A stretch of DNA of 64,000 nucleotides from a virus (IMGVR_UViG_3300003314_000001:1-64000); one strand, 5' to 3'. Positions 4,443 through 63,473 are shown, counted from the first letter of the stretch. The notes: generated by a model not told the origin, from the sequence alone. Numbers and translations are program-made.

Positions 4443-4612
4443 GGCGGCTTCCCGATTGTATGAGTGGTCTCTGCGTTAACTACGTCACTCCGTAGGTCGC
4501 GGGCCGCTTCTACTTCTGACCCATTGAAATTCTCCGGATTTCGGAGGATGTGGGTCGCATACCTACAAACAAGCTCTGCTTTCAAAGGCGACAAATCAAC
4601 TGTCCGCTTCAT
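4439..4612 (-). CDS. Hypothetical small protein (57 aa)
   Basis: Hand-translated ORF MKRTVDLSPLKAELVCRY..., the last ORF of the minus block. 4-nt convergent overlap with 4344..4442. No motif. Confidence 0.25.
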   Translation of the reverse strand: MKRTVDLSPLKAELVCRYATHILRNPENFNGSEVEAARDLRSDVVNAETTHTIGKPP

Positions 4613-4706
4613 ATTCTTTCTAACAACACCAAAGTATAAAAACGTTACTCTGATGTGTCCCGGAAAAGGTTCAACTCCTGTCCGGGACTACTCACTCAAT
4701 ACGTAT

Positions 4707-4734
4707 CCGTTACAGGGTGAAATGACTGTAACGG
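4707..4734. terminator. Perfect 9-bp hairpin in the convergent late/early junction
   Basis: CCGTTACAG-GGTGAAATGA-CTGTAACGG, between the end of the plus late operon and the end of the minus block. Confidence 0.35.
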
Positions 4735-4789
4735 CGCTCTCCCATTAAAAACAGCTATTTTCGGAGGGAGAACGATTCTACGTCCTACT

Positions 4790-4885
4790 TTATCCTAAAT
4801 GAATATAATAAAAGAACATAATCGAAACGATAGCCATTAGAAACCCAAAGAGAAAAATATAGAATCCATCGTGGAAGCAAGGCAT
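4790..4885 (-). CDS. 31-aa single-TM mini-protein
   Basis: MPCFHDGFYIFLFGFLMAIVSIMFFYYIHLG. Its ATG lies 1 nt after the stop of 4887..5234. Confidence 0.3.
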   Translation of the reverse strand: MPCFHDGFYIFLFGFLMAIVSIMFFYYIHLG

Positions 4886-4886
4886 C

Positions 4887-5234
4887 TCAATTTTCGTCAT
4901 ATTCTTTCCAGTAGAGCGCGTTCACTTTCCGGACGAGAACGTCAACGTGACAGTCCATGTGACTTGGACAACTACAAGCAATCCGTTTCCCGTACAGACT
5001 TTTCAAGGCTTCCCGGAACCAACTCTTTTCCTCTATGAGCCACGTAAGGTCTCGCTCATACAGTTCAATTGCTTGGTCCCGGTCGTAGTCGTTCAACTTG
5101 TATGGATTGCCAAGCCAGCCTTCCTGACCTATCTCGTGGTTGTTAGCGGCTGTTGCTATGTTCCGCTCTCCGTTGTTTCCTCTGCCACCGTACAAGTCGT
5201 AGTCGTCGGTCGTATGGACTCTTTTTGTTGTCAT
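4887..5234 (-). CDS. DUF4326-like protein
   Basis: 115 aa. GNPYKL ... ACSCPSHMDCHVDVL fits the DUF4326 pattern (GNPF ... CxC ... CHxDVL) common in phages (recalled). Confidence 0.7.
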   Translation of the reverse strand: MTTKRVHTTDDYDLYGGRGNNGERNIATAANNHEIGQEGWLGNPYKLNDYDRDQAIELYERDLTWLIEEKSWFREALKSLYGKRIACSCPSHMDCHVDVLVRKVNALYWKEYDEN

Positions 5235-5485
5235 TGACTGAATGGTCTGGAATCCTGTATAGGGAATCCAAATGTTGTGATTTCGTATTCGCCGTCTTCA
5301 CGCTTCCCGACTTCCTCTAGTTGTTTGTAAGCCGACTCCCCACAACATAAAGCTATCGGATTTCCGTCAACGTAGAGAAGGTAATAATAGACTTCTTCAG
5401 ATAGCTCGTAAGTCTCCGTATCCCTCTCTCTACCGCTAAGATTGTCTTGGATTACCATAGTTATTTTATCTTTTCGTCTAACCAA
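5231..5485 (-). CDS. Hypothetical protein
   Basis: 84-aa ORF with ATGA overlap to the downstream gene. No motif. Confidence 0.55.
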   Translation of the reverse strand: MVRRKDKITMVIQDNLSGRERDTETYELSEEVYYYLLYVDGNPIALCCGESAYKQLEEVGKREDGEYEITTFGFPIQDSRPFSQ

Positions 5486-5586
5486 TACCTCTGTAAACCT
5501 CCGGCAAGACTCATGTACAGTATTATAAGGAAAGCTAACCCAGTAATATTTTCTGTCATATTCTTGTAGTGTTCAGCGAACCACAT
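5461..5586 (-). CDS. 41-aa single-TM mini-protein
   Basis: MWFAEHYKNMTENITGLAFLIILYMSLAGGLQRYWLDEKIK. Overlaps the start of 5231..5485 by 25 nt. Below the ORF-track cutoff. Confidence 0.3.
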   Translation of the reverse strand: MWFAEHYKNMTENITGLAFLIILYMSLAGGLQRYWLDEKIK

Positions 5587-7152: not shown

Positions 7153-7397
7153 AAGAAATCACCGAATCCGGTCTGTCCGGAGAGTCCGTCTCCCTCCTTA
7201 CCGTCTTGGTCTGTATTCTTAAAGCTTTCCTTCCACGGTCCCGATATTGGACGTTCATCAACACCGCCTTGAGCAGTTCGTTCCATGATTCTATCCTTCC
7301 TACACTTAAAGCACTGTAATCCTATTTCTTTATTGTTTGAAAAATCGTACACTCTCCGAACGTTATCAGTACTACCACAATCTTGACACTTAATCAT
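7149..7397 (-). CDS. Zinc-ribbon protein
   Basis: 82 aa. MIKCQDCGS ... LQCFKCRK carries CxxC..CxxC. Confidence 0.55.
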   Translation of the reverse strand: MIKCQDCGSTDNVRRVYDFSNNKEIGLQCFKCRKDRIMERTAQGGVDERPISGPWKESFKNTDQDGKEGDGLSGQTGFGDFL

Positions 7398-7420: not shown

Positions 7421-7675
7421 CTAGCAGTCGGGAAGTGGGTCGCCACCGTCGAACAAGTCAGTCATTTCTGGAATTTCTCGCTTCACTTTGTAATGCATGT
7501 CTTTTCGTTTAAGTTCCTTGGATATTGTTTTTCTTACATACCACAGGTTTCTGATACATTCGTGACAGTAGTAGAATGCATCAATTATGATGTTCGTTCT
7601 GCTCCTTTTTATTTTCTGGAAGTACGTAGTGTTCCTATGCTTCTTTTCCTCTCTACAGTTCTTACAGCGAGCCAT
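7421..7675 (-). CDS. Zinc-finger protein
   Basis: Internal ATG (MARCKNCREEKK...YYCHECIRN) of ORF-track 7421..7765. The upstream extension overlaps 7662..7886. The C-terminal codons carry the CAGTCGGGAAG motif. Confidence 0.5.
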   Translation of the reverse strand: MARCKNCREEKKHRNTTYFQKIKRSRTNIIIDAFYYCHECIRNLWYVRKTISKELKRKDMHYKVKREIPEMTDLFDGGDPLPDC

Positions 7676-10549: not shown

Positions 10550-10604
10550 CCGTTTGGTTATCCGGACAGTACCTTAACAGTACAGCACAGCACCTCAACA
10601 GCAC

Positions 10605-10670
10605 GACGCTTCCCGACTTTTACTGTACTTTTTCAATAGGTACTGTTTGGTACTGTTAACAGTGGTATGG
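10605..10670 (+). repeat. Long intergenic repeat, copy A
   Basis: GACGCTTCCCGACTTTTACTGTAC..GGTACTGTTTGGTACTGTTAACAGTGGTATGG. 12-bp palindrome ACTGTTAACAGT at 10652-10663. Confidence 0.7.
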
Positions 10671-11229: not shown

Positions 11230-11338
11230 TTTTCTCTCTCGGAAACTGATTACGTCCCGGTTCCAATCAGACCGGAAGCAGTCGGGAAGCCGCCCCGGCT
11301 ACCTCCGTTTGTCTAAAATGGAATCGGTCTAATCGGAT

Positions 11339-11646: not shown

Positions 11647-12156
11647 TTACTCATTGTCTTCCTCGGACTCTCCTTCGGTACTCTCGGTCTGTTCCTCGGA
11701 ATCCTTTAGAGCGGCTTCCGCCGCACTCTCCTCGGGTTCCTCGTCCTCCGAGTAGAGGTCCCAATCGTCCAGTTCCTCCCACTTGATACGCCACTCGCCG
11801 CCGTCTCGAATCATCGGAATATCCTCCGAATTATCAACGAGACGCTGGAGGTCGGCAACTTCCAGACTGAACGAGTCCATCAGCTCCGGAAGCTCGTCCT
11901 CAATATCGACCGTAATAGTGTAATCGCCGTACTCACCAAGGTCGATAGTGATGTTCGCCACCGCTCGCTCGTTGAACGTTCCAGAAATCGTCACTCGCTC
12001 CACACTGTCGAAGTAACCGACAGTCTCCTTCATGTGGTCCGGAAGGTTGTTTCGCTCGCTGTAGTCCGTGACAACGGCTTCCGCGCCGGTCGGGGTCTGG
12101 TCGTCGTTCTGTGCGCCGAAAATCTGTGCAATAGTACTGTAGATGTTTGCGAACAT
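11647..12156 (-). CDS. Hypothetical acidic protein
   Basis: ATG (MFANIY...) 2 nt after the upstream stop. The ORF-track 12201 start would overlap the nuclease gene. Confidence 0.6.
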   Translation of the reverse strand: MFANIYSTIAQIFGAQNDDQTPTGAEAVVTDYSERNNLPDHMKETVGYFDSVERVTISGTFNERAVANITIDLGEYGDYTITVDIEDELPELMDSFSLEVADLQRLVDNSEDIPMIRDGGEWRIKWEELDDWDLYSEDEEPEESAAEAALKDSEEQTESTEGESEEDNE

Positions 12157-12158
12157 TG

Positions 12159-13235
12159 TTATAGTTCTCCGAGTTTTTCCAGCTTGTACTGTCCGTACCA
12201 CACGGGATTGAAGAATTCGTCCTGTAGCGGCCAGTACGAATCAATTCCCATGTGTTCCGCAATCATGTCTTGGTCGTATCCCGATTCAATCATTCCGATG
12301 AAGGTTTTCTTTTCCTCGAACGGTTTCCCCCAATCGGATTCACAGTCGTCGTAGTTGTCACACTTCCCGTCCCCGTAGTGACATAGTGCGCCGGGACTAA
12401 TGCCGAAATCCTCCATTTCAGGATTCATGTCCGGCGGGGTAGTGTTCATCTTCCGGTTTCCGTCAGCGATAATCTTTTGAACGTAAGCCTGTCGTTCCGG
12501 GTCCGGTTCATCTACAAGGAAATCATGATTTTTGGGATAATAGCCTGCTATCCCGTCAACCTTGTAGTCTTCGGAGAATATCATTCCGTAATATTCCCCT
12601 TGGAGGAAGATTCCGTCGTCGCGGTACTTCTCGTCCGGAGTCTTCCCGGTTTTGAAGTCCACTATGACAACTCCATCGTTTCCGGAGACTTCTGGAACAG
12701 AAGCCGATGGAACTATCACGTCGGCGAAGCCCATCCAGTCCGGACCGTCGCCTTGCTCAAGCCACCCTTCTTCCTCTACTCCTCGGGGTAGCCATGCGTC
12801 TAAAGCGTATTCTATTACGGTCTTTCCGTCCCGTGGGTCGTCCAGAGACCGGAATTTCTTCGCCGCGTGTTCTTTCGCGGCTTCCGCTCGTTCCAATTCC
12901 CATGCTATGAACGAACTTACCATGTCCGTCCAGTCCGCCCATAGGAGAACGTCTTCCGGAAGGAACCGTGTAAGGTCCTTCGGACAGTCGGGAAGGGTCC
13001 CGCCGTCTTCGTAGTGTTCAAGCAGGTTCTCATAGTACACTTCGTAAGTATAGTGTACCCGAGTCCCCTGCTTCATGGCGTCCGTCTCTTCCGCTCTACG
13101 TCCGAGAACGTAGGTGTAGTAGAAGTTACGCCAACACTTCTCTGCCGTCAACAGCCGCGACTTACTCCAGTATGGTAGTTCTCCCTCCTTTGCTTCCTCC
13201 TTACACTTCTGTATTTTCGTTGTTTCCGAAGGCAT
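12159..13235 (-). CDS. Cas4/RecB-family PD-(D/E)xK exonuclease
   Basis: 358 aa. N-terminal Cys (EKCWRNFYY), GFADV, IVDFKTGK (D-x-K), QGEYYG (QxxxY) and a C-terminal Cys triad CHYGDGKCDNYDDC typical of a Cas4-type Fe-S cluster. Confidence 0.8.
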   Translation of the reverse strand: MPSETTKIQKCKEEAKEGELPYWSKSRLLTAEKCWRNFYYTYVLGRRAEETDAMKQGTRVHYTYEVYYENLLEHYEDGGTLPDCPKDLTRFLPEDVLLWADWTDMVSSFIAWELERAEAAKEHAAKKFRSLDDPRDGKTVIEYALDAWLPRGVEEEGWLEQGDGPDWMGFADVIVPSASVPEVSGNDGVVIVDFKTGKTPDEKYRDDGIFLQGEYYGMIFSEDYKVDGIAGYYPKNHDFLVDEPDPERQAYVQKIIADGNRKMNTTPPDMNPEMEDFGISPGALCHYGDGKCDNYDDCESDWGKPFEEKKTFIGMIESGYDQDMIAEHMGIDSYWPLQDEFFNPVWYGQYKLEKLGEL

Positions 13236-13623
13236 GGTCTGCTTCCTTTGTCAGCACGCTCATCGCGGTTTCCAGTTCTTTCCGGTACTCCCGAACATTT
13301 TCCAGAACGTCCCGGTAAGGGTCCGCACAGTAGTCTGGAATAAACATATCCTCGTAGGACTCGATTACGTTTTCCAGTTGTTGTTCGGTTTCCATCAGTT
13401 CTCCGTGTCGCTCGAACAGGTGTTCGTCAACGCTCTCGAAGCGGTCTTCCAGCGTAACCTCCGGGCGGTACACCTCATTCATTGCCATACTAATGGACTT
13501 GACGAGATTCCCGCTTGTTGCCGAAGTGTTCACTCCGTCACCTCGAACAACTACCTCTTGAATGTTTGGCGATTTGTTGATTTTTGCTCGAAGCGGTCCA
13601 CCGTAGATTTGCTCGTTACTCAT
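13201..13623 (-). CDS. Hypothetical protein
   Basis: 140-aa ORF, co-oriented and tightly packed. No motif. Confidence 0.55.
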   Translation of the reverse strand: MSNEQIYGGPLRAKINKSPNIQEVVVRGDGVNTSATSGNLVKSISMAMNEVYRPEVTLEDRFESVDEHLFERHGELMETEQQLENVIESYEDMFIPDYCADPYRDVLENVREYRKELETAMSVLTKEADHAFGNNENTEV

Positions 13624-13804
13624 TGTACTCTAAGTCGTGTTCGTCCGCTAACTCTTCAAGACGTTCCAGATGTTTCGTATTGTCTTGAATAATTAGCGTG
13701 CCGTCGTCTTCTTGTTTGAATGTGAGAGTCTTCCCGCCAGCGAACGCTTGTCGAAGAATTGCCTTACCCTTCGGGTCACGTGCTTCCCGCTCTTTACCCT
13801 TCAT
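13616..13804 (-). CDS. Hypothetical protein
   Basis: 62-aa ORF overlapping the downstream start by 8 nt. Confidence 0.5.
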   Translation of the reverse strand: MKGKEREARDPKGKAILRQAFAGGKTLTFKQEDDGTLIIQDNTKHLERLEELADEHDLEYNE

Positions 13805-13980
13805 TATCCAATGAAGAAACTATCGTCTTCAAGGAATTCTTCCAGAATATCTTCCGCCGAATCGCCATTCCGGAGTCGGTCCCTGTAATGTTCAATTCGT
13901 TCCACGTCGTCTTCCAGCTTCTCTTTCAAGTCGCCGAGGTCATTGATTAACTCGGCGCGGTCAAGGTTTTCTTCTTCCAT
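13804..13980 (-). CDS. 58-aa acidic helical mini-protein
   Basis: MEEENLDRAELINDLGDLKEKLEDD.... TAATG overlaps on both sides. Below the ORF-track cutoff. Confidence 0.45.
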   Translation of the reverse strand: MEEENLDRAELINDLGDLKEKLEDDVERIEHYRDRLRNGDSAEDILEEFLEDDSFFIG

Positions 13981-14123
13981 TAGAATGGACTGTTCTCTTC
14001 GTAGATAACATTCGCTGTTTCAAGGTCTAACCCTTGCTCTACACCACTCGCAAGTCGCTGAAGAAGTTTAGCTTCCTCACGGCAGTTCTCAATGAACTGT
14101 TTCTTAGTCTGGTGGTTCTCCAT
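13980..14123 (-). CDS. 47-aa mini-protein
   Basis: MENHQTKKQFIENCREEAKLLQRLASG.... TAATG overlap with the downstream gene. Confidence 0.4.
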   Translation of the reverse strand: MENHQTKKQFIENCREEAKLLQRLASGVEQGLDLETANVIYEENSPF

Positions 14124-14241
14124 TGTGAATCAGATACATAGTACGAGAAGAACGCAATTGCTCGTCTTCGGACACTTCACGGAGGGCTTCCCGACCTCTC
14201 CGGATAGTTCTCTCGGTCCGGCGAGCAATAGAATCAAGCAT
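14104..14241 (-). CDS. 45-aa basic mini-protein
   Basis: MLDSIARRTERTIRRGREALREV.... Preceded by GGTAAGGAGGGAGAAAGAG of a class-3 promoter repeat. Confidence 0.3.
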   Translation of the reverse strand: MLDSIARRTERTIRRGREALREVSEDEQLRSSRTMYLIHNGEPPD

Positions 14242-14246
14242 CTCTT

Positions 14247-14288
14247 TCTCCCTCCTTACCAAGAAGAGCAAGGGACTTAAGTCTTACG
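14247..14288 (-). promoter_or_regulatory. Class-3 promoter-like repeat
   Basis: Gene-sense CGTAAGACTTAAGTCC-N12-TTGGTAAGGAGGGAGAA. Confidence 0.5.
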
Positions 14289-14655
14289 CAATTGGAGGGT
14301 ATGGGTTCTCTCCGCAAGAAACGCACTCGTAGTCTTCTAACTCGTCTTTTGATACGGGGGAGTTACATTCGTTACATTTCGGAGTTGTACTTTTCTCTTC
14401 CTCAAGACGCGCCCAGTTCTCCGCGTATCCGGCAACGTCCGCCGGATTATCTTCGTCGTAGTGGCCGTTCTTACTTCGGGCTATCTTCATCAAGATGAAC
14501 ATGATAGCCGCGTCTATCTCGGACACGTCAACGCCAAGATACCAACTCCAAGCTCCAGCTATTTCATCGAAGGTATCTTCCGGTTCCCCATGTTGTTCCG
14601 GACGACTGTACACGATTTCCGCCGCCTGTTCTAAGATATAGGTATCGTGTTCCAT
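14284..14655 (-). CDS. DUF6378-like phage domain fused to a C-terminal zinc ribbon
   Basis: ATG (MEHDTY...). ILEQAAEIV..QHGEPEDTFDEIAGAWSWYLG..IMFILMKIARS..DVAGYA fits the DUF6378-type pattern (recalled). C-terminal CNECN..CVSCG. Confidence 0.6.
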   Translation of the reverse strand: MEHDTYILEQAAEIVYSRPEQHGEPEDTFDEIAGAWSWYLGVDVSEIDAAIMFILMKIARSKNGHYDEDNPADVAGYAENWARLEEEKSTTPKCNECNSPVSKDELEDYECVSCGENPYPPIA

Positions 14656-54436: not shown

Positions 54437-54793
54437 ATGGCTCATAAAGAAATTACTCCAAGTGACGTTCGGAAGGACGTGGCAAAGAACCGGAGCGGAA
54501 ACATTGGAAACGGAAACTCTCGGCGCGGTGGAAACCGAAAGCTACCTAACCTACGTGGACATGGCAGGTTCACGGACGAGGAATTACGGAAAGAAATAAA
54601 CCGGAACAGTCGGGAAGTGGGCGACCATACAGCAACCGAAATTATTCGGTATTACACTTATCTTCGTGTTTCTCTAATGTTAGAAGGTAAGAATCCTCCT
54701 TCCTCCATAAGCCACGCCCGAAGGTATGGATACGAACAACAACAGCATAAATTTTGGCGCGACCGAATGATTCGCGCACTTGATAAATCATGA
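54437..54793 (+). CDS. Hypothetical basic protein, head-tail module
   Basis: 118-aa ORF. Contains the 19-mer CAGTCGGGAAGTGGGCGAC. Confidence 0.5.
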   Translation: MAHKEITPSDVRKDVAKNRSGNIGNGNSRRGGNRKLPNLRGHGRFTDEELRKEINRNSREVGDHTATEIIRYYTYLRVSLMLEGKNPPSSISHARRYGYEQQQHKFWRDRMIRALDKS

Positions 54794-55520: not shown

Positions 55521-56109
55521 TGGTAACATCACGATTGACGTAGAAGTCGATTCTGACGCTATTGTGGGCCGCATACGTGAAGCTTTCGAGGATGGAATAG
55601 ATGAAGCGGCGGAAGACCTTGGAGAAGACGGAACGGAGAAAGCCCGTCTTAAAATCGTTGAGGAAGGAGCAGTCTGGAAAGGAGAACTGCTCGCTTCTTT
55701 CAATACGAAGATAACAGACCAAGGTGGAACAACAATTGTTCAAATCGAGAACAATGCCGAGTACGCTAAAGCAGTAGATGAAGGTGTAGATTATTACGAG
55801 AACGCTCCACCAATTCATCGTCTTCTTCCGTGGGTGGAGGAACATCTTGGACACTGGACTCCTTCCGACTACGAGTATGCGAAGGAGGTAGCGGCCTACT
55901 TTAAGAAGAATAGTAACCGGGCAATAGACGAATACATGGATTTGGACGTGTGGAGGGCGTATGAGCTTCAGAAAGAGTTGAAGGTTCACGGTCTTGACGC
56001 GGTAGAATTCATGGATTTCGCGGAGGAATGGCTTGAACATCATGGTAGTTTCGTTGTCCGGAATAATATTTTAAAAGAACTACGGAAGAATGGTATAGAT
56101 GCAAGATAA
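55513..56109 (+). CDS. HK97 gp10-like tail-attachment protein
   Basis: ATG (MANGNITIDV...). Size and position fit the gp10-like family. By-eye call. Confidence 0.5.
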   Translation: MANGNITIDVEVDSDAIVGRIREAFEDGIDEAAEDLGEDGTEKARLKIVEEGAVWKGELLASFNTKITDQGGTTIVQIENNAEYAKAVDEGVDYYENAPPIHRLLPWVEEHLGHWTPSDYEYAKEVAAYFKKNSNRAIDEYMDLDVWRAYELQKELKVHGLDAVEFMDFAEEWLEHHGSFVVRNNILKELRKNGIDAR

Positions 56110-56635
56110 GGAATTAGTACAGTTGGTCGTTAGTGAAGCTGATTCCGCTACTGATTCCAGCGTCACGGTCAGAACGGACGGAGGCAGTCGGGAAGTGGGC
56201 GACGACCTGCCTCTCGTTGCATTGAATTGGAGTTCTTTCCGTGCGACAGACGACGAGTCTCATTCCAATTTCGATAAGCGTATTTTTGACGATTCCGGGA
56301 ACGAAATCGGAACGCGATATGTTTTTAAATATAATATGGAATTAGACTTTACGGTAAAGTCTGATGATGAAATGAAACGTGACGAAATTGGAGAAGCCCT
56401 ACAGCTACATTTCGCAATGTATGAAGGGAATACGGAAGCTCTCCATTCAGATACCTACATGGTGAAAACCGGCGATATTCGCCCCCGGAAAATTCCGATA
56501 AAGGAACCGGACTGGTATCAGAACGGACTGATTGTCAATATTCGGTATAATAAGTACGTATCCGATACTGGCAGTCTGGAAACTATCAAATCGGTTGATA
56601 AAACCATAAACGTACAAGAGGAACTTAACATATGA
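56099..56635 (+). CDS. Tail completion/terminator-like protein
   Basis: 178 aa directly upstream of the sheath gene. Contains the 19-mer CAGTCGGGAAGTGGGCGAC. Confidence 0.5.
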   Translation: MQDKELVQLVVSEADSATDSSVTVRTDGGSREVGDDLPLVALNWSSFRATDDESHSNFDKRIFDDSGNEIGTRYVFKYNMELDFTVKSDDEMKRDEIGEALQLHFAMYEGNTEALHSDTYMVKTGDIRPRKIPIKEPDWYQNGLIVNIRYNKYVSDTGSLETIKSVDKTINVQEELNI

Positions 56636-57927
56636 CACAGATTGGTGAAATTGGACTTCCCGGCGTGCAGGCTAACATTGACTCCGACCGCTCCTTCTCG
56701 ATTGCTGATGGAGCGCCGGATGACGTTGGCCTTGTCGGAGAAGCCGACCTTTCGAATGGTACAGCAGAAGCAAATACCGTCTACGAAATCAATACTCAAG
56801 GCGAAGCAAAGGAACGTTTCGGTGCGCGTTCTGACAGTCAACTTACGAAGAACGTTCAGGACGCACTTCAGGTTGGAGCGTATCCCGTCTATGCGTGCGC
56901 TACAGAGGAGAAGACGGCTACGGACGACCTTCAAGACCTTTCCGGTACTTCTGGAAATCTTGATAATTCACCGATTAAACCTGATGCTTCCACTGTTACG
57001 TTCAAGATTGACGGAACTTCCAAGTCTACCGTCTTTACTCTGGACGACCCTTCCACTAAGTCGCCCGGAACGGACGAAGTGTACATTAACCACGTCAATG
57101 GAAAGTACGAGGTTGACGCGGCTCCATCTGACGGAACAGATAACGATACCGCCGAGTACACCCACTTCGATTACACTTCGGCGATTCAGGCTATGGGAGA
57201 CCAAGAGGGCGAAACTATCGACATTCTCGCGTCCGTCACGGAGGAAACTTCTTCCGTCGAGGCGCTAAAGGACGAAGTTCTCCGACTAGAGGATAACTTC
57301 AACCTTGCTCTCGGTCTTGCCGGTGCCGGGTTGAATATTGTTACGGCGGACTACAGCAATCCGTTCGACACCAGTCGGATGCAACTTCTGTACCCGACCC
57401 GTACTGATTCCGGTGATAGCATTATCGGTGCTTACGCTGGTCTTCGTGCAACTCTCGGAATCAGCGAATCCACAATGCGGAAGCGCATTCGATTCTTGGA
57501 TTCCGTCCGGAAGACGCTCACCGAGTCGGACAAGAAAAACATGGACGCCGAGAACGTCGTTCCGGTGGAGAACCGGAGTCCCGGTGTCAGGTTCCGGTCC
57601 GACCCGACGTGTGTTTCAGACGAAAATACGGACGAGCAGAACATGCGTGATGGGCTTTCCCGACTTATCGTGGACGCCATTACAATGGTTGTTCACGAAG
57701 TGTCGGAAGACTTCATCGGGAAGCTCCACTCCGAAGACAACCGGAATGCAATGCGCGCCATTATCAGTAAGCGTCTTTCCGAACTTGTGGAACGGAACGC
57801 TGTTGAGGCGTACACGATTTCCGTTACGGAGCAGGACGCCTACACTGCTGACGTGAACGTTGGAGTGGAGACTGTCAAGCCCCTCCGGAACGTCATTGCG
57901 AACGTTACCGCCGGAGAGGTCGAATAA
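56632..57927 (+). CDS. Contractile tail sheath protein
   Basis: 431 aa followed by the tube, chaperone and tape-measure order typical of myoviruses. Confidence 0.75.
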   Translation: MTQIGEIGLPGVQANIDSDRSFSIADGAPDDVGLVGEADLSNGTAEANTVYEINTQGEAKERFGARSDSQLTKNVQDALQVGAYPVYACATEEKTATDDLQDLSGTSGNLDNSPIKPDASTVTFKIDGTSKSTVFTLDDPSTKSPGTDEVYINHVNGKYEVDAAPSDGTDNDTAEYTHFDYTSAIQAMGDQEGETIDILASVTEETSSVEALKDEVLRLEDNFNLALGLAGAGLNIVTADYSNPFDTSRMQLLYPTRTDSGDSIIGAYAGLRATLGISESTMRKRIRFLDSVRKTLTESDKKNMDAENVVPVENRSPGVRFRSDPTCVSDENTDEQNMRDGLSRLIVDAITMVVHEVSEDFIGKLHSEDNRNAMRAIISKRLSELVERNAVEAYTISVTEQDAYTADVNVGVETVKPLRNVIANVTAGEVE

Positions 57928-58983: not shown

Positions 58984-59220
58984 ATGTTCATTCAGGTGAT
59001 GAAGGAGAAGGAAGCCGAGAAGCAACAGGAAGCGCAACAGGGCGCTTCTGGTGGAGCTTCCGGCGGCGCTTCCCGACCTGCCCCGAACCCTAATTACGAA
59101 CCGGGCGGTGGCGGGAAAGGAATGGACGAAACCACTGTCTACTATAACGATTCGTATGGTCCCGGTGAGAACCCGAACGAGGGCGTTGGCGACGAAATAA
59201 GAGAAAACTTAGATACTTAA
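58984..59220 (+). CDS. Chaperone extension ORF (frame open from 58879; possible frameshift product)
   Basis: Reading frame open from 58879 to 59220 and overlapping the chaperone 3' end. The run CAAAAG lies directly before the chaperone TAA. Confidence 0.4.
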   Translation: MFIQVMKEKEAEKQQEAQQGASGGASGGASRPAPNPNYEPGGGGKGMDETTVYYNDSYGPGENPNEGVGDEIRENLDT

Positions 59221-59226
59221 ATAATT

Positions 59227-60936
59227 ATGTCAGGAGACGGCGACGTGGACATTTCCGTCAAAATCAAGGACAACTTCTCCGGTACTCTTGAGAAGCTGGA
59301 ACAGCAGATTGAGAATCTGGATGAAGTTGTGGAAATTATCACTAAGCTTGATGATTCCGACCTTGACGAAGCCCTTGCGAAGAAAGAGGCTTTGGAAGGC
59401 GACACTCGGTCCACGCACATAGTTGACGTGATTGAACAGGGCGACAACTTTGACCCTCCCGGAAACTCTGATACATGGTCGGAACGGTTCAAGTTCCATA
59501 ATTCCGGCGTAAATCCCGAACAACAGCGGAACCTCGCAAGACAGATTGTTACTGGTGGCGCAACCACACCTTCTGACAATCATCCCGGTTCCGGTGCTGG
59601 AGCGAATATTCCGGACGGTATAGACCGCTGGATGAACGACATGGATACCTTGGAGGGCTTGAACAGTCGTGCCCGTAAAGGTCGGGAAGTGCCGCTGAAT
59701 GGACGCGACTGGTCTGCCTATCTCTCGGACGCCGCCAAGGGAGGAAAGGCTTCTGGAAGGCGACACGCCGCTTTTGAGGGATTCCAAGGGAAAGCGAAGA
59801 TGTGGGTTCCCGGAGACCCGGAACCTGTTAGCGGACCTAGTATTCAAGACCGGCTTCCCGACCTTCCAAATATCCGTAATAAGATTCCGGATAGGGACCA
59901 AATGGACTCGGGATTAGGTAAGTTAATCAGTTTCACCGATAAGTTCGACGGTAAGCTGAAGAAGCTTATGCCTACTATGCACAAGTGGATGCAGTTAGTT
60001 GCCGCTGTGCTTCCGATGATGATTAGTCTCGGAACCGCCGCTATGGGCGTAGCCGCTTCATTCGGAGCGGTCGCCGCCGCAGGTGGTGCTATCGTCGGTC
60101 TCGGTCTGATGGGAATGGACGACAAGAAGGAACGACTGGAACAGTTCCGTGAGGAATTACGGAATACGTTCGAGGGAACAGCGAAACAGTTCGCTCCTCT
60201 TGCCGATTCAATTCTCACAGAGATTCCGGGAATGCTTTCCGGTGTCAGTCAAGCTCTTGGTGGAGCGTCCGTCTTCAAGCAGACGTTCGTGAAAAGCCTT
60301 CAGACTGTTGCGGACTCTATGGAAACTCTCATACGGCGTGCTGTGTCGCTTTCTCCTATCATTGAGCAGTTGACCAACCGCTTCCTTGGACTTGTCACGT
60401 CCAGAATTGTGGACTTCTTGACGTGGCTTACGAAGGAAGCGTACCGGAATCAGGACGCTATGGTTTCCCTTTCGGAAATCTTCGGTAATATCCTGATTAC
60501 GATTTACAATCTGTCGAAGGCAGTTTCGGCGGTTGTAATTGGATTCAAGCCATTCTTCAGTATTCTGAAGATGATTTCTTCAGTCTTGAAGAACGAGTTT
60601 GCTGTTCGCATGGCTCAAGGAATCGCCCTTGTTTACACTATGACGAAGGCGATGAAGGCACTTCGGGCCGCTACTATGACAACTGGAATAGGCGCGTTGC
60701 TCGTTGGTGGTGGACTTATCGCTAACGAACTGATGTTCTCCGGACAGGACGGAAAGGGTGTTAGCGGATTCAATGGTTCCACTCCGTCCGGAATCGGTAG
60801 CTCCGGTGGAAGTGGCGACACTTACGTTATGGAAGTTGATGGTGACGTTACTGACCGACATATCAGGAAGTTCGAGACTATTTCCACTGGAAACACTAAT
60901 CAAGAATTCAGTAAGCGCGATAAGAGGGAACGATAA
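59227..60936 (+). CDS. Tape measure protein
   Basis: 569 aa. Central hydrophobic Gly/Ala-rich segments (LVAAVLPMMISLGTAAMGVAASFGAVAAAGGAIVGLGLMGM). Canonical position. Confidence 0.75.
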   Translation: MSGDGDVDISVKIKDNFSGTLEKLEQQIENLDEVVEIITKLDDSDLDEALAKKEALEGDTRSTHIVDVIEQGDNFDPPGNSDTWSERFKFHNSGVNPEQQRNLARQIVTGGATTPSDNHPGSGAGANIPDGIDRWMNDMDTLEGLNSRARKGREVPLNGRDWSAYLSDAAKGGKASGRRHAAFEGFQGKAKMWVPGDPEPVSGPSIQDRLPDLPNIRNKIPDRDQMDSGLGKLISFTDKFDGKLKKLMPTMHKWMQLVAAVLPMMISLGTAAMGVAASFGAVAAAGGAIVGLGLMGMDDKKERLEQFREELRNTFEGTAKQFAPLADSILTEIPGMLSGVSQALGGASVFKQTFVKSLQTVADSMETLIRRAVSLSPIIEQLTNRFLGLVTSRIVDFLTWLTKEAYRNQDAMVSLSEIFGNILITIYNLSKAVSAVVIGFKPFFSILKMISSVLKNEFAVRMAQGIALVYTMTKAMKALRAATMTTGIGALLVGGGLIANELMFSGQDGKGVSGFNGSTPSGIGSSGGSGDTYVMEVDGDVTDRHIRKFETISTGNTNQEFSKRDKRER

Positions 60937-60938
60937 TT

Positions 60939-61454
60939 ATGAGAATTAAACCAGCAGGGTCCGGTGGAAACCGTGGTTCGCCGGTAAACGAGAAACCTGT
61001 TCCGTTCAAATTATACGTTGACACGGAGGAATATAGTGTTGATAGGAATTATTCCTTCGGTCCGTTCTTCCCGCCTTCCGATTTCACAGTTACGAAGAAG
61101 CGGAATTTAAAGAAGGACGATAACGTATGTGAGGGCGAAACGGTTACTGATAATGGAAGCAAGAATCGAGTTATTTTTGTTTCCGGAATTCTTTCAGGTC
61201 AGTGGGAACTTCACGCTTTCGAGCAGATTTGCGACCTGAACAAGCCCCTTGAGGTGAACACTATGGGAGCGGCTTGGGAGGGAGAAGTTCGCGTAGAAGA
61301 AGGAGAATATCATGGACCAGTTGGGAAGGACACCCGCGACCTACATAGAGACGCGAACCACTGGAAGTACACCTTGCAGTTAGTTAGTACAGGACGAGAC
61401 GAATACGACAACTTCACGAAAGACGGAATTCTCGAAGAAGCAGATTCCTCTTAA
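60939..61454 (+). CDS. Baseplate/tail-tip module protein
   Basis: 171 aa in the position of XkdP/gp43-type proteins. No motif. Confidence 0.45.
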   Translation: MRIKPAGSGGNRGSPVNEKPVPFKLYVDTEEYSVDRNYSFGPFFPPSDFTVTKKRNLKKDDNVCEGETVTDNGSKNRVIFVSGILSGQWELHAFEQICDLNKPLEVNTMGAAWEGEVRVEEGEYHGPVGKDTRDLHRDANHWKYTLQLVSTGRDEYDNFTKDGILEEADSS

Positions 61455-61461
61455 AGTTATT

Positions 61462-62886
61462 ATGAATTGTAGCATGGCCCAAGGAACAGAACTTCGTTTT
61501 CTTAGTTCTGGTATCCGCATTCTTCCGAATCAGGTAGAGTACGAAAGCGATAAAGTGAATTACGATTACGCCCGCGTGGATATAACGAGGCAGGCGGGCG
61601 ACCATATTAAGGAGTATGCCGAAACTCCGGAACCTGTCGAAATCCGCACCGGAGACCGGAAGCTTGCGGACGTTTATTTTGGGACAGACAGTCTTACACT
61701 TGATAATGAAACCGCACAACTGGAACTGTTAGACGGACGAAAAGTTCTGGAACGGGGAGTTATAGACAAGCGGTTCCATACTGTAACTCTCGGTAACATA
61801 TTCGAGTTTTTCAAGAATAAGGTGGAAGACGCTGATATTGGAGAAGTAATCACCGACGTACAACTTGTTAACGCTGACCGTTCTAAAGTTACGGAAAGTT
61901 ATCAGGGAACTACGTATGCTGATTCCATGTCGGAAAACGAGATAGACCCCGACGACGCTTCCGGATTTACGAAAGCCTATTTACAGGTTGACGCTTGGAC
62001 ACAACGTTCCTTGAACGGTCTTGGTCCAATCCCGGATAGGGAAGAAGGCGGCTTCGACTTTAATCAAGCTAGTCTTGCTCAAGTTCTACAATTGATAGAG
62101 AAAGAATTTGAGCTACAGTCCTATATTGACGGAGACCGAGTGCTAAAGGTCGGAAATCCAGAAGTGGACCCGGAGATGTATTTCGCCGGTTATGGAAGTG
62201 ACATGTTTAAAGTTTCCGAGTACAACCTTACGACAGACCCGTCTGACGTGAAAATGATTTCCGTGAAAGGAGGATTTATTCAGGCTACACCATATACGGA
62301 ATCATCCTACCAAGTGGACGCTAGTGGAAGCGATAAAATGCAGTGGTGGGCGTTCGCAAGTACGGAATGGCCGGACGACCCTTCGGAGAAACAACTTCTT
62401 AATTCCCGGAAAGATAATACCTCAAATTATAGAACGGAAGGCCGTGTCATTTCCTTGGACCATAAGTCTTCCAAGAATAAAATGACGCTCAAGAAGTTAG
62501 CAGTCCGGAAGCTGATGAACGAGCTAATCCAGAAAGTATCTGGAAACATAGAAATCCAGCCTATGAAGTCGTCTATTAATAACGGCTATCCGCAGGACGT
62601 TAAGGTTGGTGACATAATTGGAGTATTCCCCGGCGACTTAGATAGTAACTGTGTTAATAATTTGTCTTCGGACGTTTTCACTGTAACCGGAGTTAGTCAC
62701 AATATTGACGGTCAATATGGATGGAATATGACAATCGACCTTTCCCGAATTCCACGACAGGATATTTACACGGCGGCTATTCCGTGGCCGAAGATTCCGG
62801 AAACTGGAAGCGACTACGAAGACTACGAAAAATTCTATAGAAAGGCAATGGAATACGACCAAGGAAGCGGAATGATTGATAACTAA
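61462..62886 (+). CDS. Putative baseplate hub (gpD/XkdQ-like position)
   Basis: 474 aa between the tape measure and spike-like genes. Confidence 0.5.
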   Translation: MNCSMAQGTELRFLSSGIRILPNQVEYESDKVNYDYARVDITRQAGDHIKEYAETPEPVEIRTGDRKLADVYFGTDSLTLDNETAQLELLDGRKVLERGVIDKRFHTVTLGNIFEFFKNKVEDADIGEVITDVQLVNADRSKVTESYQGTTYADSMSENEIDPDDASGFTKAYLQVDAWTQRSLNGLGPIPDREEGGFDFNQASLAQVLQLIEKEFELQSYIDGDRVLKVGNPEVDPEMYFAGYGSDMFKVSEYNLTTDPSDVKMISVKGGFIQATPYTESSYQVDASGSDKMQWWAFASTEWPDDPSEKQLLNSRKDNTSNYRTEGRVISLDHKSSKNKMTLKKLAVRKLMNELIQKVSGNIEIQPMKSSINNGYPQDVKVGDIIGVFPGDLDSNCVNNLSSDVFTVTGVSHNIDGQYGWNMTIDLSRIPRQDIYTAAIPWPKIPETGSDYEDYEKFYRKAMEYDQGSGMIDN

Positions 62887-62898
62887 GGTATTTAAATT

Positions 62899-63390
62899 AT
62901 GGTTAGCAATAAAGACACGAAGTCGATTATCGACACCGTAACTTCCGTAACCGTTCAGAACGGCTCAGTGTACGTCACAACGCGCTCCAGCAGACCGGGA
63001 GTGGAAAACCCCATGATACCCTACCGAAGCCCGATACCGTGGATTCTCATGGTTCCTGAGCAGGGTGACATGGTAGAGGTGTACGAGTTAGAGGACGGTA
63101 GCACTATGGCGAAGGCGTGTCATAGTCTTCCTCAAGGCGACTACAGCCTTCCAGACCTCGGTCAGCGGGACTTCATCATCAAACCAGACCCGAACACCGA
63201 AGTAAGAATCTCCGGACAGTCGGGAAGCATGGACATAAACATCAAGGCGTCCGGAACCGTCAACGTTGACGGAGACAGTATTACTCTTGGCACAGACGGC
63301 GGCGACAAGCCTCTGGTTACGGATGTAAACACTGGAAGTGACGGTACTGTATCAAGCGTAGAGAAGACAACTAAAACCAGTGCTGAATAA
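62899..63390 (+). CDS. Putative baseplate spike (gpV-like)
   Basis: 163 aa. PEQGDMVEVYELEDGS resembles the gpV OB-fold motif. Synteny supports the call. Confidence 0.5.
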   Translation: MVSNKDTKSIIDTVTSVTVQNGSVYVTTRSSRPGVENPMIPYRSPIPWILMVPEQGDMVEVYELEDGSTMAKACHSLPQGDYSLPDLGQRDFIIKPDPNTEVRISGQSGSMDINIKASGTVNVDGDSITLGTDGGDKPLVTDVNTGSDGTVSSVEKTTKTSAE

Positions 63391-63410
63391 GATAAGAGTA
63401 CAATAAAGGC

Positions 63411-63473
63411 GGGGACTTCCCGACTTTTACGGTACTCTTTTACAGTGTACTGTTTGGCACTGTTAACAGTAGT
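63411..63473 (+). repeat. Long intergenic repeat, copy D
   Basis: GGGGACTTCCCGACTTTTACGGTACTCTTTTACAGTGTACTGTTTGGCACTGTTAACAGTAGT, then ATG 63474. Confidence 0.7.

Follow-up and report, generated by a model that had tools for sequence, protein, structure and literature searches.

Enrichment of a 9-base word
A strictly defined 9-base word (CTTCCCGAC/T) is present in approximately 40 copies in a haloarchaeal tailed virus, on both strands and in genic as well as intergenic DNA. Most probably, it serves for the docking of a DNA-binding protein that evolves together with the virus. The analysed window is a stretch of 64,000 nucleotides (64 kb) from a Hafunaviridae-like haloarchaeal myovirus. The word is highly enriched, sharply specified and under purifying selection, and related viruses carry lineage-specific dialects of it at conserved positions. 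We found no published description of the word.

The window contains 31 copies of GTCGGGAAG/CTTCCCGAC (16 on the + strand and 15 on the - strand, the latter as GTCGGGAAG), whereas dinucleotide shuffles averaged 0.91 and never exceeded 4. The variant CTTCCCGAT occurs 8 times versus 0.92 expected in 64 kb, and these 31 and 8 copies constitute the 39-site set. The over-representation reported in the original prediction is real and stronger than claimed (approximately one copy of each is expected). The 27 core copies listed there did not include those at 1260, 5303, 59069 and 59681, the first copy lies at 1260 rather than 4444, and the variant copies number 8 rather than five. The 15-mer GCGGCTTCCCGATTG occurs three times, at the predicted positions 4444, 27848 and 47088. 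The 11-mer CAGTCGGGAAG occurs 12 times (0.07 expected), 11 on the + strand and once on the - strand, as had been counted; however, this bias is not taken as a rule, because the T-ending and A variants lean in the opposite direction and the relative L120 uses the extended 11-mer form on both strands. The density of the word is 0.48 per kb, versus 0.04 per kb in haloarchaeal chromosomal DNA.

The called CDSs hold 19 copies of CTTCCCGAC, versus 1.85 (maximum 7) after synonymous-codon shuffling that kept the protein and 0.87 (maximum 4) after shuffling of codon order. The enrichment thus persisted under the codon-preserving null that had been named beforehand as a refuting test. Because it survives synonymous-codon shuffling, it reflects a DNA-level signal rather than a peptide or codon effect. 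Together with the use of all six frames and orientations and the retention of the word in relatives, this bears out the predicted DNA- or RNA-level signal. The sites, with one region that is rich in them, are as follows (coordinates, strand, sequence and context).

1260-1268, +, CTTCCCGAC, sense, within ORF 1028-1432
4448-4456, +, CTTCCCGAT inside GCGGCTTCCCGATTG, intergenic, convergent blocks on either side
5303-5311, +, CTTCCCGAC, within ORF 5231-5458, antisense
7427-7435, -, CTTCCCGACTG, intergenic, sense, start 7397 29 nt downstream
10609-10617, +, CTTCCCGAC, head of ~65-bp repeat copy, PolB downstream
11281-11289, -, CTTCCCGACTG, intergenic, sense, start 11229 51 nt downstream
12987-12995, -, CTTCCCGACTG, Cas4-like PD-(D/E)XK nuclease gene, sense
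14187-14195, +, CTTCCCGAC, intergenic, antisense to neighbouring - genes, ~60 nt downstream of class-I-like repeat promoter
16696-16704, -, CTTCCCGAC, intergenic, sense, TFB-ribbon protein gene (start 16634) 61 nt downstream
17478-17486, -, CTTCCCGACTGTTCAAGTGG, HTH-phosphoesterase gene, sense; position shared by L127 (CTTCCCGAC) and L129 (CTTCCCGTC)
19880-19888, -, CTTCCCGACTG, sense, start 19862 17 nt downstream
20192-20200, +, CTTCCCGACTG, within ORF 20118-21689, antisense
21762-21770, -, CTTCCCGACTG, intergenic, sense, start 21689 72 nt downstream
22432-22440, -, CTTCCCGAC, sense, adjoins stop of 22441-22659, start 22389 42 nt downstream
23087-23095, +, CTTCCCGAC, within ORF 22737-23708, antisense
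25509-25517, +, CTTCCCGAT, within ORF 25231-25653, antisense
27283-27291, -, CTTCCCGACTGTTAAC, within + ORF 26511-27452, antisense
27852-27860, +, CTTCCCGAT inside GCGGCTTCCCGATTG, within ORF 27615-28124, antisense
28321-28329, +, CTTCCAGAC (A variant), head of fourth ~65-bp repeat copy, + gene 28434 113 nt downstream
33017-33025, -, CTTCCCGAC, within ORF 32792-33082, sense
36277-36285, +, CTTCCCGAT, within ORF 35786-36601, antisense
38150-38158, +, CTTCCCGAC, within ORF 37698-38627, antisense
40589-40597, +, CTTCCCGAC, head of ~65-bp repeat copy, 32 nt upstream of start 40556 on the opposite strand
42087-42095, -, CTTCCCGAC, intergenic, sense, stop of 42105-43292 9 nt before
42291-42299, +, CTTCCCGAC, within ORF 42105-43292, antisense
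43900-47100, no strand, ORF-poor region (~3.2 kb) between divergent early and late blocks, with word copies
46118-46126, +, CTTCCCGAC, ORF-poor non-coding region
46764-46772, -, CTTCCCGACTGTTAAG, ORF-poor region, divergent pair with A-variant site 46794 (+), kept in L118 and L120
47092-47100, +, CTTCCCGATTG, terS-like gene 74 nt downstream, dyad after site, kept in L118 and L120
47921-47929, +, CTTCCCGATTG, 14 nt past terS-like stop, kept in L118 and L120
49237-49245, +, CTTCCCGAC, TerL, sense (Leu-Pro-Asp), same codons in L118 and L120
51295-51303, +, CTTCCCGAC, portal, sense (Leu-Pro-Asp), same codons in L118; TTA CCC GAC in L121 (other dialect)
51617-51625, -, CTTCCCGAT, within ORF 51517-51777, antisense, not kept in L118
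54609-54617, -, CTTCCCGACTG, within ORF 54437-54793, antisense, not kept in L118
56187-56195, -, CTTCCCGACTG, within ORF 56099-56635, antisense
57715-57723, -, CTTCCCGAT, within ORF 56632-57927 (sheath-like), antisense
59069-59077, +, CTTCCCGAC, within ORF 58984-59220, sense
59681-59689, -, CTTCCCGAC, within ORF 59227-60936, antisense
59854-59862, +, CTTCCCGAC, within ORF 59227-60936, sense
63219-63227, -, CTTCCCGACTG, within ORF 62899-63390, antisense
63416-63424, +, CTTCCCGAC, head of ~65-bp repeat copy, start 63474 49 nt downstream

Specificity of the site
Single substitutions at positions 1-5 and 7 all fall to background; position 6 tolerates A, position 9 tolerates T, and of the 33 occurrences of TTCCCGAC, 31 follow a C. 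In the logo of the 39 sites, the word is embedded in an asymmetric site of ~20-23 bp whose 5' flank is rich in G/C and which has T at +9, G/T at +10 and, in 38 sites, a purine at +16 (+15 for the word of HRTV-25). This substitution profile resembles a protein recognition site, and a strictly identical 9-mer that shows no covariation is the usual pattern where proteins recognise DNA.

Asymmetry, 7-9 specified bases and one degenerate position are also features of Type IIG, ISP and BREX sites, and the relative L130 has a Dam-like methylase. It is nevertheless very improbable that the word is connected with host defence, as a target or decoy of restriction-modification or a different system, or that it arose neutrally from mutation or codon bias. 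Phage genomes avoid such targets, whereas the word is enriched 20-fold, and no methyltransferase was found among the window proteins tested or in the annotation of HRTV-25; the codon-aware nulls and the conservation of sites exclude a neutral origin.

Conservation and dialects
The closest relatives, whose TerL is 80-82% identical, use the same word, and the conservation check proposed in the original prediction showed that sites are retained there: 9 of 12 comparable sites versus ~11% of 9-mers (5 of 7 versus 12% of all 9-mers in L118; 4 of 5 versus 9% in L120). Codon identity at the intragenic Leu-Pro-Asp sites is 9 of 9, versus the usual 56%. The word of L118, L120 and L127 is CTTCCCGAY, which is strongly enriched. 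More distant relatives have dialects, namely CTTCCAGTC in L001 (10 versus 0.09 expected), CTTCCNGTC in L121 (18 versus 0.56) and CTTCYYGCC in the isolate HRTV-25 and in L128 (37 versus 2.2 expected in 50 kb), which share the invariant part CTTC..G. In five or six viruses, the terS-like gene is flanked by dialect-matched sites that occupy the same intergenic positions: equivalents of site 47092 are found in L121, L007 and L002, and those of site 47921 in L001 and L121 and, reversed, in HRTV-25. Equivalent conserved places thus carry the word in either orientation.

Placement along the genome
Sixteen of the 39 copies are intergenic, a 2.2-fold enrichment in non-coding DNA (18.7% of the window), and 59% are intragenic, in both orientations. 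The overall orientation is nearly balanced (21:18), with no rule relative to transcription. Ten intergenic copies (approximately a quarter of the set, rather than the half claimed earlier) lie in sense orientation 17-85 nt upstream of start codons, at variable distances, and the intragenic copies of the late block, described as antisense, have both orientations (4 sense, 6 antisense). The 39 sites occur about once per 1.6 kb and are more evenly spaced than by chance (CV 0.72, P = 0.02); with variants included (86 sites), the gaps reach 2.2 kb at most (P = 0.003). The even-spacing trend is also seen in HRTV-25 and HF2. No strand polarity was detected along the genome or towards its presumed ends, with a split of ~18:19 at the terS-proximal non-coding region. 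The ORF-poor region, a candidate regulatory or origin hub, holds six copies (43879 at its edge, 45788, 46118, 46764, 46794 and 47092), approximately twice the genome average.

Relationship to promoters and transcripts
All four copies of the ~65-bp intergenic repeat are headed by the word, which there adjoins TTTTAC at exactly the spacing of a BRE and TATA box. Repeats of HRTV-25 have the same arrangement (CTTCCCGAG-TTTGAAA). CCGAC-T(G/T)T could thus be a BRE-plus-TATA-like element of weak or alternative, including antisense, promoters, read by a host TFB/TBP pair or a viral factor. The sense copies before start codons and a small viral protein with a TFB-type zinc ribbon would fit. So would HF2, in which both strands of ~70% of the genome are transcribed from unmapped promoters (PMC8707807); the element would drive such pervasive transcription. 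However, we regard this as distinctly unlikely. The intergenic repeats of HF1 and HF2 are class I and II promoters (PMC8707807), and six canonical HF2-class-I-like repeat promoters in the window lack the word, so that a core-promoter role was rejected. The BRE/TATA reading is further disfavoured because the logo shows neither a TATA-like nor a TSS-like signal at the distance expected for a promoter (+30 to +40) and the HRTV-25 word is followed by G/C. In half of the sites, position +10 is G and a T/A-rich box is absent; the homologous genome-wide words of HRTV-25 and L121 are followed by G rather than a T-rich box; the distance to the start codon varies; and positions 1-5 (CTTCC), as strict as the BRE-like part, are unexplained by a BRE.

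It is quite improbable that the word acts in RNA, for example as a site for processing or protein binding within polycistronic sense transcripts and counter-transcripts. Sense copies in short gaps of co-directional genes, sometimes 0-25 nt past a stop codon, transcription of both strands in HF2, and a conserved hairpin after site 47092 in which relatives have compensatory changes are consistent with such an RNA element. However, no general hairpin or structure signal beyond GC content was found around the sites, no Rfam family matched, the orientation at equivalent places is free (reversed after terS in HRTV-25), and the lack of covariation points to DNA.

Possible function of the word
Among the functions suggested in the original prediction, which made no choice between them, a regulator-type protein-binding site is the best reading, whereas the BRE/TATA promoter and the polar Chi-like element are disfavoured, the latter because the copies show no strand bias towards the presumed ends of the genome. 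We tentatively propose that a lineage-specific DNA-binding protein uses the word as multi-site operator boxes, in the manner of stoperators or DnaA boxes; the reader is inferred to be a protein, encoded by the virus and with a transcriptional output. One sequence-specific protein, encoded by or co-evolving with the virus lineage, would bind the ~20-23 bp site (G/C-rich 5' flank, CTTCCCGA(C/T), T, G/T, approximately five loose bases and a purine). Some boxes would lie in regulatory DNA, namely at the head of the promoter-like 65-bp repeat, before the late (terS-like) operon and in short spacers between genes, and others would be written into coding sequence via synonymous codons, leaving no long stretch without a box. 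In favour of this reading, the reversed word occupies the predicted start region of five repeated elements of HRTV-25 that resemble promoters. Across the whole genome, the protein may regulate viral transcription: at promoters it would repress or time it, and inside operons it would serve as a roadblock or organiser on either strand, in parallel with the stoperators of the mycobacteriophage L5 repressor and with DnaA boxes, which serve at the origin and as operators. No reader protein was identified, and ~70 window proteins have no informative Pfam match. The one clear sequence-specific HTH, in a 417-aa protein, has a recognition helix that does not vary with the dialects. Silencing of the lysogeny type is not an obvious role, because no integrase or repressor is recognisable in the window.

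The genic majority of sites, in both orientations and without a rule relative to transcription, argues against operators, and the even spacing is explained no less well by genome coverage than by gene regulation. The main rival is a genome-wide 'self' tag that, at roughly regular intervals, steers the viral DNA-metabolism machinery to viral rather than host DNA, either DUS/Chi-like or as a loading or priming site for the primase/PolB replisome, a recombination nuclease or terminase. We consider this possible, although on balance unlikely. Genic sites made by codon choice, balanced orientations, the spacing trend shared with HRTV-25 and HF2, and dialects around CTTC..G that recall those of DUS all favour it, as do the conserved sites flanking the terS-like gene and the Cas4-like nuclease, primase and PolB among the core genes; the purine at a fixed distance would suit de novo primase initiation. 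However, known primases recognise 3-5 nt rather than 9-10, polarity of the Chi/KOPS type is absent, no RecBCD/AddAB-type helicase-nuclease was recognised among the window proteins, and a pure coverage tag needs neither non-coding enrichment nor conserved regulatory positions.

Comparison with known systems
As with the stoperators of cluster A mycobacteriophages, the sites are dispersed and asymmetric, some at promoters and the rest within operons, with a consensus that differs between relatives. The stoperators of the L5/Bxb1 repressor gp71 are asymmetric sites of ~13 bp for a monomeric regulator, with two to three dozen copies per ~50-kb genome, one or a few at promoters and the rest inside operons, and their consensus co-evolves with the reader. 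However, classical stoperators lie nearly all in short intergenic gaps, co-oriented with transcription, unlike the present sites, and the window derives from an archaeal virus. DnaA boxes, asymmetric 9-mers read by one HTH domain, are likewise clustered in a non-coding control region, comparable to the ORF-poor region, as well as dispersed, and also act as operators at promoters; here, clustering in the non-coding hub is modest and no initiator gene was identified.

Chi sites (RecBCD/AddAB) are also short, asymmetric, lineage-specific and over-represented markers of own DNA, but are strongly co-oriented with replication or DNA-end entry; Archaea are not known to have RecBCD or AddAB. In the same virus family, HF1 and HF2 have intergenic repeats resembling the homologous-looking repeat promoters of the window, which has the 65-bp repeat in addition. 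The HF2 repeats are 29-58 bp long, AT-rich and strictly intergenic, with sub-motifs found nowhere else in the genome (PMC8707807), whereas the word is 9-11 bp, GC-rich and mostly outside such repeats.

Finally, the word resembles the Neisseria DUS and Haemophilus USS in its use of both orientations and several frames, its intergenic enrichment and its weaker extended flanks. These uptake sequences are 9-12-mers occurring about once per kb, with an invariant sub-core and lineage-specific variant positions ('dialects'). They belong to cellular genomes and are read by a competence pilus receptor, whereas a virus has no uptake step; a self-recognition step in packaging, replication or recombination would be the hypothetical analogue of DUS uptake.

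Enrichment of the word

The word, a strict 9-mer core, is present in 39 copies in the window, of which 31 end in C (CTTCCCGAC/GTCGGGAAG) and 8 end in T (CTTCCCGAT). Dinucleotide shuffles yielded 0.91 copies of the C-ending form (maximum, 4), and 0.92 copies of the T-ending form were expected. In an unbiased k-mer scan, too, the word and the extensions overlapping it ranked with the most over-represented sequences of 9 to 12 nt in the window. The enrichment described in the original prediction was thus reproduced, whereas its list of copies was incomplete: four C-ending and three T-ending copies had been missed, and the first copy is located at 1260. The strand-biased sequence CAGTCGGGAAG (12 copies versus 0.07 expected, 11 of them on the plus strand) and the three copies of the 15-mer GCGGCTTCCCGATTG were found as predicted.

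The enrichment also survived a codon-aware null model; its loss under such a model had been named as a ground for refuting the prediction. Called genes contain 19 copies, compared with 1.85 after synonymous-codon shuffling that kept the proteins and 0.87 after shuffling of the codon order. Therefore, the word has been written into genes via codon choice. These shuffles, together with the use of all frames, ruled out a peptide or codon artefact, and by-product origins of the word are excluded. Haloarchaeal chromosomal loci (1.05 Mb) carry the word at only 0.04-0.06 per kb versus 0.48 per kb in the window, and a general haloarchaeal word or host signature was rejected on this basis. A 20-mer scan of 185,579 genomes returned only two chance bacterial matches; therefore, no host or provirus was found.

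Anatomy of the site

In a single-substitution scan of CTTCCCGAC, changes at positions 1-5 or 7 reduced the number of copies to background (0-2), while A at position 6 (13 copies versus 1.9 expected) and T at position 9 (8 versus 1.0) were tolerated. The base 5' to TTCCCGAC is C in 31 of 33 cases. The A variant at position 6 is intermediate, and one copy heads a 65-bp element, a four-copy intergenic repeat. The G variant (CTTCCGGAY) was largely rejected as a member of the motif, because TTCCGGAC shows no 5' C preference and none of its copies is kept in the related viral contig L118.

The context of the 39 strict sites is asymmetric. The five bases of the 5' flank are G/C-rich and nearly devoid of T, and on the 3' side +9 is T in 28 sites, +10 is G or T in 36 and +16 is a purine in 38 (G in 29). 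Flank similarity is lost beyond ~23 bp, save in the four 65-bp copies, so the sites are not copies of a longer repeat, and a longer dispersed repeat or mobile element was rejected. A general association with hairpins was also discarded, being a small effect driven by GC content. No Rfam family was matched at the word (tRNAs were the only matches), and a function of the word at the RNA level is a less likely reading.

Dialects and selection in related viruses

The window (G+C content, 48%), which belongs to a 66,106-bp contig from a metagenome assembly (Logan SRR8450738), covers the greater part of a tailed haloarchaeal virus genome, in which the large terminase (TerL), portal, capsid and family B polymerase (PolB) were recognised. 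In the phage collection, it best matches Halorubrum tailed virus 25 (HRTV-25; Hafunaviridae), with 52% TerL identity, and the HF1/HF2 group, with 43%. A PolB-based metagenome scan matched only cellular PolB loci, at 31-35% identity. When conservation was examined, as had been proposed, the exact word proved uncommon among relatives, yet each carries a similar word of its own (a dialect), and sites are kept in L118 and L120.

Dialects of the word in relatives, whose contigs are parts of each genome (TerL, identity to the window)
L118; TerL 82%; CTTCCCGAY; 6 copies versus 0.25 expected
L120; TerL 80%; CTTCCCGAY; 7 versus 0.23
L127, early-region contig from a sample shared with L120; CTTCCCGAC; 5 versus 0.27
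L001; TerL 72%; CTTCCAGTC; 10 versus 0.09
L121; TerL 69%; CTTCCNGTC, then G-T; 18 versus 0.56
HRTV-25 (isolate); TerL 52%; CTTCYYGCC, then G, with C-G at +14/+15; 37 versus 2.2 in 50 kb, 46 genome-wide
L128; HTH-phosphoesterase homologue 41% identical; CTTCYYGCC; 24 in 17.6 kb

CTTC..G is invariant across the dialects, and the remaining positions drift between lineages. In HRTV-25 genes, the 10-mer CTTCYYGCCG occurs 29 times versus 2.6 after synonymous shuffling. No such word was found within the 9.7 kb of L130. The sites of L128 (JGI Ga0102672_100001) have their own conserved 5' flank, GTCTCTC, in place of the G-rich flank of the window; this contig also contains, at 12031-15522, a PolB intein with a LAGLIDADG endonuclease (weak Pfam matches).

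Strict sites are better conserved than their surroundings. L118 is 74% identical to the window and keeps 12% of its 9-mers, and 5 of 7 strict sites are intact; for L120, the corresponding values are 9% and 4 of 5. None of the A- or G-variant sites is conserved unchanged, though for one A-variant site of the window the aligned counterpart in L120 is a C-variant site. At the Leu-Pro-Asp sites in TerL and portal, codons are identical in 9 of 9 cases across comparisons, versus 56% for conserved residues. The portal gene of L121, a virus with a different dialect, has TTA as the Leu codon and lacks the word there. Furthermore, dialect-matched sites occupy equal intergenic positions in different viruses, flanking the terS-like gene, and an intragenic position is shared as well.

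Sites at corresponding positions in different viruses
Upstream of the terS-like gene: CTTCCCGAT in the window, L118 and L120; CTTCCAGTC in L121; CTTCCCGTC in L007; CTTCCAGCT in L002
Directly past the terS-like stop codon: CTTCCCGAT in the window, L118 and L120; CTTCCAGTC in L001; CTTCCCGTC in L121; own word, reversed, in HRTV-25
Within the HTH-phosphoesterase gene: CTTCCCGAC in the window and L127; CTTCCCGTC in L129

Strict specificity, asymmetric extended flanks, purifying selection on the sites and compensatory word changes where positions are conserved would all be expected if one sequence-specific protein bound the sites and its specificity drifted from lineage to lineage. On this sequence evidence, the word is a candidate binding site of a single sequence-specific protein.

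In addition, HRTV-25 TerL (L035 8750-8800) has a 10-residue insertion, GEKAAYLTGL, where the TerL of the window has the word (49222-49260), and the DNA of this insertion carries HRTV-25's own word, reversed. In HF2 (L123+L124), the 7-mer CTCGATG/CATCGAG is over-represented (160 copies), evenly spaced and absent from the repeat promoters of this virus; genes contain 143 copies versus 42 after synonymous shuffling (3.4-fold). However, CTCGATG is present at 0.86 per kb in haloarchaeal chromosomes, so part of the excess reflects codon or dipeptide usage, and we did not equate it with the word.

Relationship to promoters and repeat elements

The ORF-based gene map of the window is as follows.
1-4.3 kb, plus strand: tail genes
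4.9-43.9 kb, almost all minus strand: early and replication genes
Between the early and late blocks: 3.2-kb ORF-poor region
From 47.2 kb, plus strand: late operon

Seven tRNA genes are located at 23.8-26.3 kb. The ORF-poor region (43900-47100) contains tandem GGTCCGGAAC repeats (45813, 45823) and many short inverted repeats, and the equivalent regions of L120 and L121 are likewise non-coding and rich in repeats. This region is a candidate for the replication origin, a control hub or the location of the genome ends.

In HF2, intergenic repeats of 58 and 29 bp were experimentally shown to be promoters and are strictly intergenic, and ~70% of the genome is transcribed from both strands (PMC8707807). 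Sub-motifs of such repeats occur nowhere else, and the repeats have an AT-rich TATA box and a BRE ~26 bp upstream of the mapped start. The word differs on both counts: 23 of its 39 copies lie within ORFs, and neither the 39-site nor the 86-site logo contains an AT-rich box or a start-like signal at the proper distance. The window contains a separate set of six class-I-like elements (CGTAAGACTTAAG, ~16 bp, then GGTAAGGAGGGAG / TGTTGGTAAGGAGGGAGAAGG), which have these features and are similar to verified HF2 class I promoters (TCTTTAAGTC ... TAGAGTGAGGAG). None of the six contains the word, and two lie ahead of the tRNA cluster. The main promoters for early and middle transcription are probably these six elements. 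Each range below lies within an element of ~50 bp.

7191-7201, minus strand: class-I-like element (~50 bp)
14249-14259, minus strand: class-I-like element (~50 bp)
19477-19487, minus strand: class-I-like element (~50 bp)
25196-25206, minus strand: class-I-like element (~50 bp)
26399-26409, minus strand: class-I-like element (~50 bp)
28226-28236, plus strand: class-I-like element (~50 bp)

The 65-bp element, which is distinct from these repeats, reads GGGGA-CTTCCVGAC-TTTTACKGTACT...TTTTACAGTGTACTGTTTGGTACTGTTAACAGT, with the word at its head directly abutting TTTTAC. Three of its four copies end with the 12-bp perfect palindrome ACTGTTAACAGT.

10594-10670, plus strand: 65-bp element
28306-28400, plus strand: 65-bp element
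40574-40660, plus strand: 65-bp element
63401-63475, plus strand: 65-bp element

Two copies precede plus-strand genes (28434, 63474), and the remaining two lie among the minus-strand genes, one upstream of PolB and one upstream of gene 40556. To judge from this arrangement, the element may act as a promoter, bidirectional or antisense, that includes an operator. HRTV-25 contains five repeated promoter-like elements that read TTCCCGAG-TTTGAAA, 19-26 bp, then GCGGCGGGAAG, in which the reversed word is predicted to fall at the expected transcription start.

Because the word is present in the 65-bp element but absent from the class-I-like repeats, it is part of some promoter-like repeats and not the core promoter of this virus. 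The logos, the HRTV-25 flanks and the word-free class-I-like promoters all disfavour a core promoter. That the word is itself a promoter of the BRE/TATA type is improbable: a T/A box is missing at half of the sites, the dialects of HRTV-25 and L121 are G/C-flanked, and canonical repeat promoters exist separately in the window.

The region upstream of the terS-like gene (47040-47175, corresponding to L118 604-738 and L120 2545-2683) contains the site at 47092 followed by a dyad (ATGAGTACTCAT in the window, TGGGTAaaTACCCA in L118). The dyad is surrounded by an outer inverted repeat, CCAATAC...GTATTGG, both arms of which are altered in L120 (TCAATAC...GTATTGA). A stretch just upstream, ACCCTTTCAGTACCATACAAT, is similar to the HF2 class II (late) promoter repeat.

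Distribution of the sites and possible functions

Intergenic regions, which constitute 18.7% of the window, contain 16 of the 39 sites (binomial P of the order of 1e-3), in both orientations relative to transcription. Ten of the 39 sites are sense-oriented and 17-85 nt upstream of a start codon, with no fixed distance. The 23 intragenic sites use every frame, 8 in sense and 15 in antisense orientation. Strands are balanced (21 plus, 18 minus) in both the early and the late block, and no polarity relative to transcription or to the likely genome ends beside the terS-like gene was detected among the 39 sites. The sites are more evenly spaced than random ones (CV 0.72 versus 0.96, P = 0.02), and once the A and G variants are counted in, the widest interval between sites is 2.2 kb (P = 0.003). 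In HRTV-25 and HF2, too, the respective words tend to be evenly spaced.

In the tail-fibre-like block (1-4400), the G+C content is 41.7% versus 48-49%, and there is a single copy of the word (0.23 per kb versus 0.6-0.7 elsewhere), a deficit that is not statistically significant by itself. These features are compatible with a host-range module that was recently exchanged and whose sites are yet to be acquired.

We tentatively favour a multi-site operator role of the word in viral transcription, because the sites concentrate in regulatory DNA and belong to repeated promoter-like elements in two viruses. The intragenic majority, the lack of an orientation rule and the even spacing fit this role least well. 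They are exactly what one would see with a self-tag of the DUS or Chi kind that served replication, recombination or packaging; such a tag is the main rival and a possibility that we regard as doubtful. A further proposal, speculative and in our estimation unlikely, is that Hafunaviridae-like viruses have a genome-identity system, in which a lineage-specific 9-10-bp 'password' (CTTC-YN-G-NC dialects) is written evenly over the genome, coding regions included, and a co-evolving viral machine would use it to tell viral from host DNA during replication, recombination or packaging.

Candidates for the proposed reader protein

A Pfam scan of ~70 window proteins gave mostly no match; it detected no methyltransferase, RNA polymerase, Orc1/Cdc6 or integrase, and no putative reader protein (the protein recognising the word). 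Only one clear sequence-specific DNA-binding domain was recognised, a GerE-like HTH that is N-terminal in a conserved phosphoesterase of 417 aa. The recognition helix of this HTH (S.VYDHIS) is near-identical across different dialects and differs within one dialect, so this protein is an unlikely reader. Stoperator consensus sequences co-vary with a cognate viral repressor; dialects of the word exist, yet the one clear HTH shows no variation matching them. The terS-like zinc-knuckle protein was set aside as well, since its sequence tracks phylogeny and so carries no information on this point.

The HTH-phosphoesterase gene at 16964-18217 (minus strand), HRTV-25 gp61 and HF2 HrrHF2_290 encode a GerE/sigma-region-4-like HTH fused to a metallophosphoesterase (390-420 aa). 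It adjoins the primase gene and has >100 homologues in halovirus contigs and haloarchaeal genomes. The product of another gene, at 16170-16634 (minus strand), is 154 aa long and has a zinc ribbon of the TFIIB/TFB type (CPEC...GRYDDRGEVVCQSCGLVIS) but no cyclin folds. It is conserved in eight metagenomic relatives, and its sequence shows no DNA-binding fold. This protein is noteworthy with respect to transcription takeover: by binding to the dock of RNA polymerase, it could redirect host transcription or block it. Viruses of this group encode numerous small CxxC proteins (PMC7230728), which are candidates for the reader.

Significance

The two papers on the HF1/HF2 group deal with palindrome avoidance and with long, AT-rich repeat promoters, and a word of this kind is not among their subjects (PMC8707807, PMC7230728). 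No description of one was found in the open literature on this virus family, and sequence-string searches matched primers only. For tailed viruses of archaea, this seems to be the first case. The control of gene expression and DNA transactions in these viruses is little known, and most of their proteins, including many small zinc-finger proteins, are without known function. Since the word is strictly defined, under selection and changing in step with lineage, it provides a direct experimental handle: an oligonucleotide carrying it (CTTCCCGCCG in HRTV-25, GGCGGCTTCCCGACTGT... in the window virus) could serve as bait for the reader protein in HRTV-25-infected cells. The dialects offer natural specificity swaps that can be tested in this cultivable relative, and could also be a lineage signature for sorting metagenomic halovirus contigs. 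As a regulator site, the word would add a genome-wide control layer above the known repeat promoters; as a self-tag, it would introduce a principle new to these viruses; and a genome-identity system would be the viral equivalent of DUS or Chi and the first in archaeal viruses.

Comparison with known systems

Since bacteria and bacteriophages are already known to have recognition words that are asymmetric and dispersed, the word is not a new category; we take the stoperators of mycobacteriophage L5 and DnaA boxes to be its nearest analogues. Like stoperators, which are dozens of asymmetric 12-14-bp sites over the genome, the word has many strict copies with asymmetric extended flanks. However, stoperators have a single orientation relative to transcription and lie in short intergenic gaps, unlike the word with its 8 sense and 15 antisense intragenic sites.

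ORB elements are inverted copies clustered at an AT-rich unwinding element by orc1/cdc6, whereas copies of the word are scattered across the 64 kb; the scan of window proteins detected no Orc1/Cdc6 domain. In a published ORB example, the G-string is 3' of the box on the same strand, whereas the G-rich flank of the word is on the opposite side and strand.

Targets of restriction-modification or BREX systems are avoided in virus genomes or protected by methyltransferases, whereas the word is 20-30-fold enriched, and no cognate methyltransferase was found in the scanned window proteins or is listed in the HRTV-25 annotation. A defence-related function is a less likely reading.

Chi has strand polarity relative to replication or DNA ends, whereas the word is balanced in both halves of the map; the HRTV-25 word shows a weak 29:17 strand bias that coincides with antisense orientation. 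Chi also acts with a cognate RecBCD/AddAB-type helicase-nuclease, whereas only a Cas4-like PD-(D/E)XK nuclease, and no partner helicase, was recognised in the window. A polar signal of the Chi/KOPS type was rejected for lack of polarity, the 11:1 bias of CAGTCGGGAAG not being seen in the T-ending or A variants or in L120. Finally, DUS/USS words occur at ~1 per kb, in both orientations and in both genic and intergenic DNA, and have lineage dialects, and the word shares all of these properties.
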